DNA of 15,659 bases from Promethearchaeota archaeon. GTDB lineage: Archaea; Asgardarchaeota; Lokiarchaeia; Sigyniarchaeales; SOKP01. Under the pieces are notes generated by a model. It did no database searches. It worked only from the letters and a program-made list of their open reading frames with translations, and had not been told where the DNA came from. The translations under genes and the position numbers were made by a program. The DNA lies in the NCBI GenBank assembly GCA_048938025.1, contig JBHLMP010000015.1:52070-67728 (forward strand), given 5' to 3'. Positions within the stretch are counted from its first letter, which is position 1. Each line of letters opens with the position of its first letter. Below, one piece after another: positions 9,443 to 15,659 of this stretch.

Positions 9443-9886
9443 TTATTCAAGAAATGCTTTTATCTCATCTAAAAAAGATTCGAATTGATTTAATTCTGTA
9501 AAATCGCTATTGTTATATCTTTGATTGAATAATTCTAAAATAGGTTCTGCAGTATCAAAAAACTTCTTTACTAATTTATCTGGATTCTTCTTTTTTTTGT
9601 CTATTAAGCCATACATAATAATTGGTTCCTTTAATCCACTATCGCTTGATTTTATATCTGAAATCTTGAAAATAAAAAGAATTGAACCAGATTCTAAATA
9701 TTCTAAGGACGTATTATTGAACGCGCTCTTGGCAAATGTATTTATTGCAGATATAAAAGCTCCTCTTAGATCCTTTGCAACACACTTTTCTTTTTGAGTA
9801 GGTATCTCTTTAACTATATAATTTATAAGCACAAAACCTCGAAATACTATTCCTAACTCATAGAGATATTCGCTTAAAGGTGCTAT
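9443..9886 (-). CDS. Stand-alone longin-like domain protein (~147 aa; proposed ATA start, track start GTG 9832)
   Basis: Frame is open upstream of 9832 to TAA 9913-9911 and adds APLSEYLYELGIVFRGF (first beta-strand). It continues with DLRGAFISAINTFAKSAF (helix 1), three strands and two C-terminal helices (LELFNQRY, NQFESFLDEI). Confidence 0.7.
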   Translation of the reverse strand: MAPLSEYLYELGIVFRGFVLINYIVKEIPTQKEKCVAKDLRGAFISAINTFAKSAFNNTSLEYLESGSILFIFKISDIKSSDSGLKEPIIMYGLIDKKKKNPDKLVKKFFDTAEPILELFNQRYNNSDFTELNQFESFLDEIKAFLE

Positions 9887-9892
9887 AACAGA

Positions 9893-9899
9893 TCCACCT
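9893..9899 (-). promoter_or_regulatory. Shine-Dalgarno site before ATA
   Basis: Minus strand reads tAGGTGGA-tctgtt-ATA-gca-cct. Confidence 0.55.
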
Positions 9900-12813: not shown

Positions 12814-13962
12814 TTAATTCAATTTTAATATCTTAACTATATCATTATTAAAATCTTCAAATATTTGTGGATATTCTCCTTCAAGATTTTCTAACTCTAT
12901 CAATATATTCTTATAAATATCGTTAAATTTATTCTTTACAGTATTTAAAAAATATCTCATACTGACCATTTCTTTTTTAACTAAAATACAAAAAATTAGA
13001 AAACTCATATTCTCTCCTCCATAGTCTAATAAGATTAAATTTTCTCCTTGTTGAACTTTTTCAATTTTAGATTCTTTTGATTTAGTGATAACTGAAATTA
13101 TACTTTCCATTCCAACGATCCCCCCTGGAAAGATTATATTATATGCTTGCAATGTATTTGAATCTTCCTTTATCTTTCTTTCATTGTTCCCTTTCCTTGA
13201 GAAATTATAATAATAAAGAATTTCTAAACGCCTACTATCAATTATGAATAACTTTACTAAGTTATCTTGCCAATTAAATTCCAAAAAAATTGGAAAATTA
13301 TAAATCGCATAGAATACAATCATTTGACCCAGAATCATTAAAGGATTATAAATTAAAGCTACAATTTGTTGTTGCATAGGGTTAAATAAATATGGATTTT
13401 TTTCTGCTCCAATTACAACCATCATGATAATCAAGATTTCTCCAAAAAATAATATTAATATTCTTCTCTTAACATTTCCAGCGGATTTTTGAATTAGTTT
13501 AATGTGAAAATATACCATAAAAATACTCCCTAAAAAAAGTGATATTATTACAAATACACCGTCTAGAATTATATTATCTATTATTAAAATGAGAAGTGAT
13601 AAGAAAAAGGTGATTATAGAGACTATTTTTGAGAAGTTTGTATTAATTAATTTATTGAAAGATTTTTGAGAAACAATCATTAAAAATGAAAAAGCACCAA
13701 AAAAGATTAGTATGTGTGATAAATTAAGTAGAAAATCATTTATTAATGAATTATTTATATAATAACTATTAATAGTACGAATTCCTATTCCAGTAAAACC
13801 AAAAAAATATAATAGTCCAAATGCTAATAAAAATTTATTTATCCCTAATTTTTCATCTTTTATTTGAAAGTACCTATAAAAGAAATACACACTTATTTGA
13901 AAAGAAAGAAGTAAAACTATAAAAACAAAGGGATAATGAAATGCTCTCAATAATTTCTCCAT
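12814..13962 (-). CDS. Seven-transmembrane protein fused to a C-terminal longin-like domain (paralog of the downstream gene)
   Basis: About 7 hydrophobic segments. Shared junction PIFLEFNWQDNLVKLFII vs PSFSEYEWQQNLDSLFII. Only 15 nt separate the two genes. Confidence 0.75.
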   Translation of the reverse strand: MEKLLRAFHYPFVFIVLLLSFQISVYFFYRYFQIKDEKLGINKFLLAFGLLYFFGFTGIGIRTINSYYINNSLINDFLLNLSHILIFFGAFSFLMIVSQKSFNKLINTNFSKIVSIITFFLSLLILIIDNIILDGVFVIISLFLGSIFMVYFHIKLIQKSAGNVKRRILILFFGEILIIMMVVIGAEKNPYLFNPMQQQIVALIYNPLMILGQMIVFYAIYNFPIFLEFNWQDNLVKLFIIDSRRLEILYYYNFSRKGNNERKIKEDSNTLQAYNIIFPGGIVGMESIISVITKSKESKIEKVQQGENLILLDYGGENMSFLIFCILVKKEMVSMRYFLNTVKNKFNDIYKNILIELENLEGEYPQIFEDFNNDIVKILKLN

Positions 13963-14134
13963 AATTCATTAATAGTTTTTTTATCAATAAATTTTTTATT
14001 CTCTTTACAGGAATGTAAATTGTATACTTTTATTTATTTTTTTAAGTAATATGATAATCAGCTAAAAGTTAAAATTAAATTCTTTTATATTTAATATTAT
14101 TCCTTTAAATTTCTTTACTTAGTAATAGATAACA

Positions 14135-14140
14135 GAGGGA
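14135..14140 (+). promoter_or_regulatory. Shine-Dalgarno-like site before ATA
   Basis: GAGGGA-attagg-ATA-tca; same geometry as GAGGGGA-tttgg-ATG at 15371-15385. Confidence 0.5.
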
Positions 14141-14146
14141 ATTAGG

Positions 14147-14683
14147 ATATCAATTGATTTAGCATTCAAAATAAGTGTTTTTGGCGATTCTGGAGTTGGT
14201 AAGACTTCATTAATTAATCGATTTATGACAAACAAATTTGATTTAGATGTTGGAAAGACTATGGGAGTAAATATTTCGACAAAAAATGTAGTTATTGAGA
14301 ATTTAAGAGTTGTACTTCAAATTTGGGACTTTTTAGGGGAGGAACGTTTTAGAAGCATTATTAAAACTTATGCTAGTGGAACCTTTGGAGGTATCTTTAT
14401 GTATGATATTACAAGTAAAAATAGTTTGATGAATTTAAATGAATGGATAGCCCTTTTTCATAATACATTTCCAAGTACCAAAAAAAAAATACCAATTATC
14501 TTAGTTGGAGGAAAATCTGATCTAAATAATGAAAGAGAAATAACAAAAGAAGATGCTTTATCTATATTAAGATTACATAATATGTTTACTTTTATTGAAT
14601 GTTCATCAAAAACAGGTGAAAATATTGAAGAAGTTTTTTTTTCTTTGACTAATAAAATAATGAAAATTAATGGATATATTTAA
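14147..14683 (+). CDS. Rab-like small GTPase (Ras superfamily), ~178 aa; proposed ATA start (the track start at 14225 omits the P-loop)
   Basis: In-frame upstream of 14225: SIDLAFKISVFGDSGVGKTSLINRF (G1). Then KTMGV (G2), LQIWDFLGEERFRSI (G3), FMYDIT, LVGGKSD (G4), ECSSKTG (G5). Confidence 0.9.
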   Translation: MSIDLAFKISVFGDSGVGKTSLINRFMTNKFDLDVGKTMGVNISTKNVVIENLRVVLQIWDFLGEERFRSIIKTYASGTFGGIFMYDITSKNSLMNLNEWIALFHNTFPSTKKKIPIILVGGKSDLNNEREITKEDALSILRLHNMFTFIECSSKTGENIEEVFFSLTNKIMKINGYI

Positions 14684-14854
14684 CCTTTTAAGAAGATTTG
14701 CCCGATGTTGAAAGCTATATACAATAATAGATCATCAGACATTGTTTAATTGTTGTCTTTGTTAGGAGTTCGAATTTTTTTTATAAAGTATAAATTTTTA
14801 TATTAAATTTTATCTATAAAATAATTAAGATTGAATATAATTTAGGTGACTAAA

Positions 14855-15382: not shown

Positions 15383-15659
15383 ATGGTTAAAGATATTAAC
15401 TCACGATTTGATGAAAAAATTAAAGATTTAGAAGAAACTTTACCAACACTAGATACTAATAGGAATTGTGCTGCCCTCACTCTAACAAATATTCTTGAAA
15501 CTCTTGGATTGGGCAATATTTATTTTCACAACCTTGCTATTCCATTGTCAGGCGGTTTTGGTGGTTTTAAATCATTAAAAGGCTGGAAAGGTCCTTGTGG
15601 TGCAGTTTGTGGAGGATGTGCGGCAATTGGTATAATAATGGGAGGACAGGAAAAAATAA
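15383..15659 (+). CDS. Second C-GCAxxG-C-C family protein, truncated by the window end; absent from the ORF track
   Basis: Manual translation MVKDINSRF...NRNCAALTL...PLSGGFGG...GPCGAVCGGCAAIGIIMG..., with GAGGGGA SD 5 nt upstream and no stop before the edge. Confidence 0.85.
   Translation, partial: MVKDINSRFDEKIKDLEETLPTLDTNRNCAALTLTNILETLGLGNIYFHNLAIPLSGGFGGFKSLKGWKGPCGAVCGGCAAIGIIMGGQEKI

Follow-up and report, generated by a model that had tools for sequence, protein, structure and literature searches.

A Ras-family GTPase gene very probably started at AUA in a Promethearchaeota archaeon, and SD-led AUH initiation as a probable habit of its lineage

An intact small GTPase gene of the Ras/Rab family in a Loki-type Asgard archaeon of the Promethearchaeota very probably starts at an AUA codon, as one case of a habit of its lineage in which AUA, AUU or AUC (AUH; ATH in DNA) serves as the initiation codon behind a well-placed SD motif. 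The case is built on comparative analysis of sequences. The gene lies in the window, i.e., the whole stretch of 15,659 nt analysed here (G000:C87:52070-67728, at a contig end), from a 3.52 Mb MAG of 29% G+C, G000, with a completeness of 96.7% and an estimated contamination of 5.1%. A search of the window for Rfam families gave no match. The features on which the argument draws are, in window coordinates:

14083..14099, + strand: TATA-like A/T-rich element TTTTATATTTAATATTA, a putative archaeal promoter, about 48 nt 5' of the start
14126..14128, + strand: in-frame TAG of the sequence, closing the frame 5' of the GTPase
14135..14140, + strand: SD-like GAGGGA, its AGGGA at -11..-7 relative to ATA 14147
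14147..14149, + strand: putative ATA start codon; ATH at the aligned codon in 9 genomes, two of them with TAA one codon 5'
14147..14683, + strand: Ras/Rab-family small GTPase gene (Pfam PF00071), 178 codons plus TAA
14183..14206, + strand: P-loop GDSGVGKT (G1) in the translation, 5' of every NTG; pN/pS 0.20 over codons 7-26
14225..14227, + strand: first in-frame ATG (residue 27), the start chosen by gene callers; database protein P0001, 152 aa
9443..9886, - strand: second ATA-started gene, 147 codons plus stop, no Pfam family; AGGTGG at 9894-9899, 8 nt, then ATA

After the TAG at 14126-14128 the frame reads ITEGIRISIDLAFKISVFGDSGVGKTSLINRF before it reaches ATG 14225, and the 32 codons between the two contain no ATG, GTG or TTG. 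An NTG-free stretch of this length is not improbable by itself; its significance here comes from the conserved domain and P-loop that it contains. In the read-through frame, Pfam Ras (PF00071) matches with an E-value of 4.9e-42 and 143.7 bits, against a gathering cut-off of 21.6; profile positions 1-161 of 162 fall on residues 14-178 of that frame, with position 1 on the K of FKISVFG, and the domain therefore begins 19 codons 5' of the first NTG. The NTG-free part encodes strand beta-1 and the P-loop, and the translation carries the Ras hallmarks G1 (GxxxxGK[ST], here GDSGVGKT) and G3 (DxxG, here DFLG). The usual G4 guanine-specificity motif is [NT]KxD; at 14498-14509, in the IPIILVGGKSDL region, the gene has GKSD and its close relatives GKSD or SKLD, with K and D kept and the first residue departing from the usual form. 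The nearest named database relatives are labelled 'Rab family GTPase', and the database entry for the gene itself exists only as the 152-aa form from ATG 14225, devoid of the P-loop. Sequence and Pfam thus confirm the original observation of an NTG-free frame from TAG 14126 to ATG 14225 with the P-loop inside, and its expectation that gene callers would truncate the protein describes what the database holds.

The motif upstream of the ATA occupies the position at which ATG genes of the genome carry it. In a reference set of 1470 confident ATG genes, in which the first NTG is an ATG at most 8 codons from the upstream stop, the stretch -14..-8 is enriched in G and the enriched 4-mers spell GGAGGTGA, with peaks for GAGG at -14, GGTG at -11 and GTGA at -10; the mode is -11 for AGGG and -10 for GGGA. 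The AGGGA of the window stands exactly at -11..-7 of ATA 14147, in the register of these ATG genes, and ATTAGG (14141-14146) separates GAGGGA from the ATA (14147-14149) by 6 nt, exactly as originally stated. The next gene but one in the window, at 15383, has a motif of the same type before its ATG (GAGGGGATTTGG ATG). GAGGGA is weaker than GGTGA, and the MAG assembly contains no 16S rRNA; the 16S 3' end being unassembled, complementarity to the anti-SD is deduced from the motif statistics. Further upstream, the TATA-like element is adjoined by a divergently transcribed gene, and a TTAATATTA-type element is found at a comparable distance in most GTPase orthologs; the element at 14083..14099 may act as the promoter and set the transcription start.

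Orthologs were compared in nine genomes: G000, the 7 of 53 other genomes of the genus that have an ortholog (E<=1e-56), and one extra MAG that came from a scan of public genome contigs. The orthologs of the seven genus species are 52-59% identical. At the codon aligned to ATA 14147, ATA occurs four times, ATT four times and ATC once; GGGGA, GAGGGA, GTGGGA or GAGGGG ends 6 nt 5' of this codon in all nine genomes, and neither GGG at -10..-8 nor AG at -3,-2 varies (9/9). Two orthologs read GGGGA TAA AGG ATH, with a stop within the spacer, so in-frame translation cannot arrive from upstream; in the window, the TAG lies 6 codons before ATA 14147. NTG is absent ahead of the P-loop in eight of the nine genomes; ortholog G065 has an in-frame GTG 4 codons 5', inside the SD, which may be used as a start. 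In seven orthologs the first in-frame NTG comes 38 codons after the ATH, past the P-loop, and none of the seven has an ATG at the position of ATG 14225. The frame is open in all nine genomes for at least 178 codons, and the nine orthologs give pS 0.535 and pN 0.142 over codons 2-38 (pN/pS 0.27) and pN/pS 0.20 over codons 7-26, the P-loop segment on which selection was to be looked for. The conserved ATH and SD, the upstream stops and the pN/pS values therefore argue that the segment before the first NTG is translated and constrained. An internal isoleucine conserved as ATH would look alike; what carries the call of the start codon is thus the pair of upstream stops, the SD register and the parallel with eL21 described below. 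ATA 14147, originally put forward as the best candidate, is supported as the start by its SD register, by eight orthologs and by the two among them with an upstream stop.

Other accounts of the missing NTG fit these data poorly. One is decay into a pseudogene, another a true ATG misread or misassembled as ATA: NTG is absent and the source is a MAG. Logan contigs from runs X2, X3, X5 and X7 along 13950-14700 leave 14132-14157 uncovered. Decay or error is nevertheless highly improbable, with ATH kept in nine species, a frame open for at least 178 codons, an N-terminal pN/pS of 0.27 and a like pattern in dozens of other genes; the outcomes named in advance as refuting, an ATG in relatives or a decaying copy, are not what is seen, as the relatives are without ATG and the copy is not decaying. 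It is just as improbable that the 152-aa protein from ATG 14225, which gene callers produce, is the true product: this form lacks the P-loop along with strand beta-1; at that position ATG is missing from seven orthologs, which reach their first NTG 38 codons past the ATH; and the segment upstream is under purifying selection.

The position of the start within the leader leaves more choice, since three further ATH codons (ATA 14129, ATT 14141 and ATT 14153) lie between TAG 14126 and the P-loop, and G065 has its GTG 4 codons 5'; initiation at one of these non-NTG codons, or at a codon that varies among species, is nonetheless unlikely. The codon aligned to ATT 14141 is TTA, AAA or the stop TAA in eight of eight orthologs, that aligned to ATT 14153 is TTT, TTC, GTA or ATA, and ATA 14129 has no SD and, in two orthologs, falls outside the open frame; 14147 alone is both ATH in 9/9 and in SD register. 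Recoding, by read-through of TAG 14126 or by a frameshift from an upstream ORF, could also supply the N terminus. Nothing specific speaks for it, beyond the fact that G000 does recode TGA in HdrA-like genes, and it can be given very little credence: orthologs differ in which upstream stop they have (TAG, TAA or TGA) and in where it lies (1 to 25 codons), no ORF is conserved upstream, and a conserved TATA-like element lies about 45 nt 5', beside a divergently transcribed gene.

Several frames elsewhere in G000 are unusual in their own ways. Four HdrA-like paralogs, on contigs C87 (ORF offset 40200), C15 (21348), C26 (4657) and C85 (13361), have an in-frame TGA at a C-x-[TGA]-G-[VI]-N-I site with homology continuing 5', and these TGA are probably selenocysteine codons. 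In a GTPase paralog on contig C12 (minus-strand ORF offsets 34061-34559), about 30 nt separate beta-1 (FVFKI) from the P-loop (LIGDGAVGKT) and include a perfect 8-bp hairpin (CTACTGAA AAAG TTCAGTAG) and a stop; an insertion, a small intron-like element or a frameshift could account for this insert. Another GTPase, on contig C11 (minus-strand ORF offsets 1053-1965), has GGTGA followed by TTT CTC TTT, neither NTG nor ATH.

An AUA start at 14147 would be one of many such starts in the genome. A strict test considered in-frame codons from the upstream stop to the first NTG in about 2960 non-overlapping ORFs of at least 100 codons: GGTG stands at -12..-10 of 57 of the 2279 pre-NTG ATH codons vs 33 of 12984 other codons (odds ratio 10, Fisher p 1e-25). 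The preceded ATH codons divide into ATT (29/1119), ATA (16/901) and ATC (12/259); control codons, counted in a slightly different ORF set, are almost never so preceded (AAA 2/1529, AAT 1/1038, TTA 1/1043, TAT 0/732). The spacing profile of ATH peaks at -11, the same as for ATG, TTG and GTG. With a looser SD definition than this strict GGTG register, the contrast is 2-3 fold. Read from the motif, 82 cases of GGTGA, 6 nt, a codon and at least 100 open codons comprise 31 with ATH (ATT 13, ATA 11, ATC 7) vs 11 with ATG, and include TTG 10, AAA 8 and CTG 2; the 3079 GGTGA sites without a long frame have ATT at 125, ATA at 82 and AAA at 199.

Homology and domain matches extend into the same pre-NTG territory. 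Among 1570 ORFs with a paralog, 92 have paralog homology at least 8 aa 5' of the first NTG: 31 of these have an SD-registered ATH or CTG, 37 resemble split, frameshifted or recoded genes, 23 have no assignable ATH or CTG and 1 contains N. A set of 60 GGTG-registered candidates (57 ATH and 3 CTG, with two pairs nested in one ORF) was compared with Pfam; 41 have a family at E<=1e-5, and 19 of the matches begin 5' of the first NTG, often with profile position 1-2 on residues 2-10. Examples are eL21, AFOR_N, GCHY-1, NifU_N, CbiM, ThiF, HpaB_N, two Ras, two Response_reg, a TFIIB zinc ribbon, Robl_LC7 and, behind CTG, Fer4. G000 has 86 GTPase-like ORFs; of the 84 GTPase matches with a P-loop, 7 lack a plausible NTG ahead of it, and ATA or ATT stands behind a G-rich motif in five of the seven. 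One GTPase ATT aligns to the ATG of a paralog. From the GGTG register and paralog homology, ATH starts are estimated at about 2-3% of genes, a lower bound because starts without an SD are invisible to this approach. A CTG start was also seen 6 nt after GGTGA, opening an ETF-alpha/ferredoxin gene (G000:C88:1858-3048, minus strand; L201) in which Fer4 profile position 2 is residue 3.

Both of the genome-wide checks proposed at the outset, a count of genes whose homology extends 5' of the first NTG and a search for ATA enrichment behind SD motifs, here extended to ATH, gave positive results (92/1570, 31 of them with SD-registered ATH or CTG; 57/2279 vs 33/12984). The suggestion of relaxed start selection across the lineage is upheld by this enrichment, by the Pfam coverage and by the orthologs of eL21 and aIF1. 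The other suggestion, a translational down-tuning of signalling genes, is not supported as a rule, because housekeeping genes (eL21, NifU, a TFB paralog and an XPD-like helicase) likewise use ATH. A second AUA start within 15 kb had also been claimed, and it exists: on the minus strand at 9443-9886, AGGTGG is followed by 8 nt and ATA. AGGTGG precedes ATA or ATC in this gene in G000 and the four species closest to it; more distant orthologs have TTG 4 codons downstream in 13 of 15 and GTG in one. The gene adjoins membrane proteins and a beta-propeller gene.

The ribosomal protein eL21 (loci L202-L231 and L285-L304), encoded in G000 at C5:48792-49103 on the plus strand with an ATC start, shows how the habit is distributed. 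In 23 genomes of the genus the start is ATA in 10, ATC in 6, ATT in 4, TTG in 2 and CTG in 1 (ATH in 20/23), nearly always behind AAGGTG. Seven genomes of another family have ATG (4) or TTG (3), and, within the same family, 20 genomes from 12 further genera have ATG (9), TTG (7), GTG (1) or ATH (3), the three ATH cases falling in two genera; the 27 genomes outside the genus pool to ATG 13, TTG 10, GTG 1 and ATH 3. ATG, TTG, GTG, CTG, ATA, ATT and ATC thus all occur at one aligned position, which places ATH at the exact site of the relatives' ATG or TTG. The GGTG register, applied to other genomes, gives 6/334 ATH vs 8/2361 other codons (p 0.004) in a 400-kb sample of G006, of the same genus, 0/280 vs 7/1738 in a 400-kb sample of G032 (31% G+C), from another family of the order, and 1/199 vs 42/4060 in G033 (53% G+C). 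A strictly genus-limited habit is rejected by the eL21 ATH in 3 of the 20 sampled other-genus genomes of the family; most of the habit appears to lie within the genus, with scattered cases elsewhere in the family, as judged from sampled genomes of which related ones are not independent.

The factor expected to police start codons is itself encoded behind a poor one. The aIF1 (SUI1) gene is present in G000 (C24:2575-2904, minus strand), and all 22 aIF1 loci of the genus (L112-L133) have AAGGTTGTGA, an in-frame stop, two or three codons, and ATT AAA GAC GAC GAC ATT TGT. There is no NTG before the zinc knuckle; the first comes 15-80 codons past the first Cys. In another family, aIF1 has a GTG, TTG or ATG start in five of seven genomes, and in the other two, of genus g5, it is likewise without NTG. 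These two (L136, L140) share an out-of-frame ATG AAA AAA C directly 5' of ATA CCA AAA, which is compatible with either an ATA start or a +1 shift at the A run. An altered aIF1 protein was considered as the basis of the habit and rejected: there are only seven genus-specific substitutions, six of them conservative (F/L, I/V, D/E, V/I, L/I, A/Q) and the seventh, T/K, a change of charge; the basic RKWGR loop is retained. An altered initiator tRNA is rejected within the scope of the comparison: 4 genus and 8 non-genus genomes share one and the same anticodon arm (GGGCTCATAACCC, with A1:U72). In G000 itself no initiator tRNA was found, the single pattern match there not being a tRNA; ARAGORN finds 14 tRNA genes in this genome and Rfam 25. 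Introns at unusual positions interrupt several tRNA genes, among them initiator tRNA genes of relatives.

The proposed mechanism is as follows. AUA 14147 would initiate the GTPase, placed by the SD-like AGGGA 6 nt 5', and in the genus AUA, AUU and AUC, sometimes CUG, behind a well-placed SD would be regular starts of roughly 2-3% of genes. The ordinary initiator tRNA (anticodon CAU) would read AUH by third-position mismatch and insert Met. Relaxed proofreading of start codons, with the SD duplex holding the P site in place, may make such decoding tolerable. aIF1, the factor that proofreads, is itself made from a conserved AUU and could form a self-limiting loop. On these patterns we infer the Met N terminus, the efficiency of the start and the aIF1 feedback. 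In bacteria, IF3 is autoregulated via the AUU start of infC. Among eukaryotes, eIF1 autoregulates through poor AUG context (Ivanov 2010, as cited in PMC6237735), and in Sulfolobus aIF1 is reported to discriminate against non-canonical starts (PMC6237735); taken together, the two make a self-limiting aIF1 loop plausible, with one lineage-level correlation behind it. A broader possibility, which must be regarded as speculative and rather doubtful, is that start stringency has been reset in the genus as a system: AUU-made aIF1 would settle at a level where SD-led AUH is ordinary and the start set is AUN plus KUG. If true, the reset would give the archaeal lineage nearest to eukaryotes its own equivalent of the IF3/infC and eIF1 loops.

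The practical consequence concerns annotation. Searches for eukaryote-like proteins (small GTPases, roadblock/longin proteins, E2 enzymes and tubulins, among others) draw on Asgard archaea; should 2-3% of genes begin with ATA, ATT or ATC, standard calls would systematically strip N-terminal strands, P-loops and zinc ribbons. The GTPase of the window is stored without its P-loop, and truncation of this kind can create false 'degenerate' or 'inactive' family members. Routine near-cognate initiation and an AUU-started aIF1 also bear on start-codon fidelity in the archaeal lineage nearest to eukaryotes.

Compared with Asgard Ras/Rab-family small GTPases (PF00071), the window protein is alike in its full-length Ras match, P-loop and DxxG, and differs by the G4 GKSD and the ATA start. 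SD-led initiation at AUU, AUA or AUC is known from bacteria, e.g., E. coli infC and pcnB, and NCBI table 11 lists ATT, ATC and ATA as starts. An ATT start is likewise described for E. faecalis ebpA (PMC4447247). The likeness lies in a near-cognate AUH at normal SD spacing, with callers choosing a downstream ATG and truncating the protein; bacterial AUH starts are, however, a handful of regulatory exceptions, whereas here an estimated 2-3% of genes are involved, including one for a ribosomal protein, in an archaeon with eukaryote-type factors (aIF1, aIF2).

The closest Asgard precedent is AtubA of a Kariarchaeaceae MAG, for which a 'rare ATT start codon' was proposed (PMC13394414): there too an Asgard gene is annotated short, its first beta strand missing and an ATT plausibly spaced from the RBS. 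That proposal concerns a single gene in another Asgard class and stands in the Methods, with no orthologs, statistics or genome-wide claim in the sections available. SD motifs are described as rare in an annotated Lokiarchaeon genome, and AUH starts go unmentioned in the accessible parts of these sources (PMC7531240; PMC12993045); in the literature searched, supplements aside, this one anecdotal Asgard ATT start was found and no genome-wide description of such AUH starts. In comparison with the IF3 and eIF1 systems, feedback by aIF1 would be a prediction from sequence, and the protein departs from that of NTG-using relatives mainly by conservative changes; the likeness is that the gene of a factor that rejects poor starts has a poor start of its own, ATT at 22 of 22 aIF1 loci.
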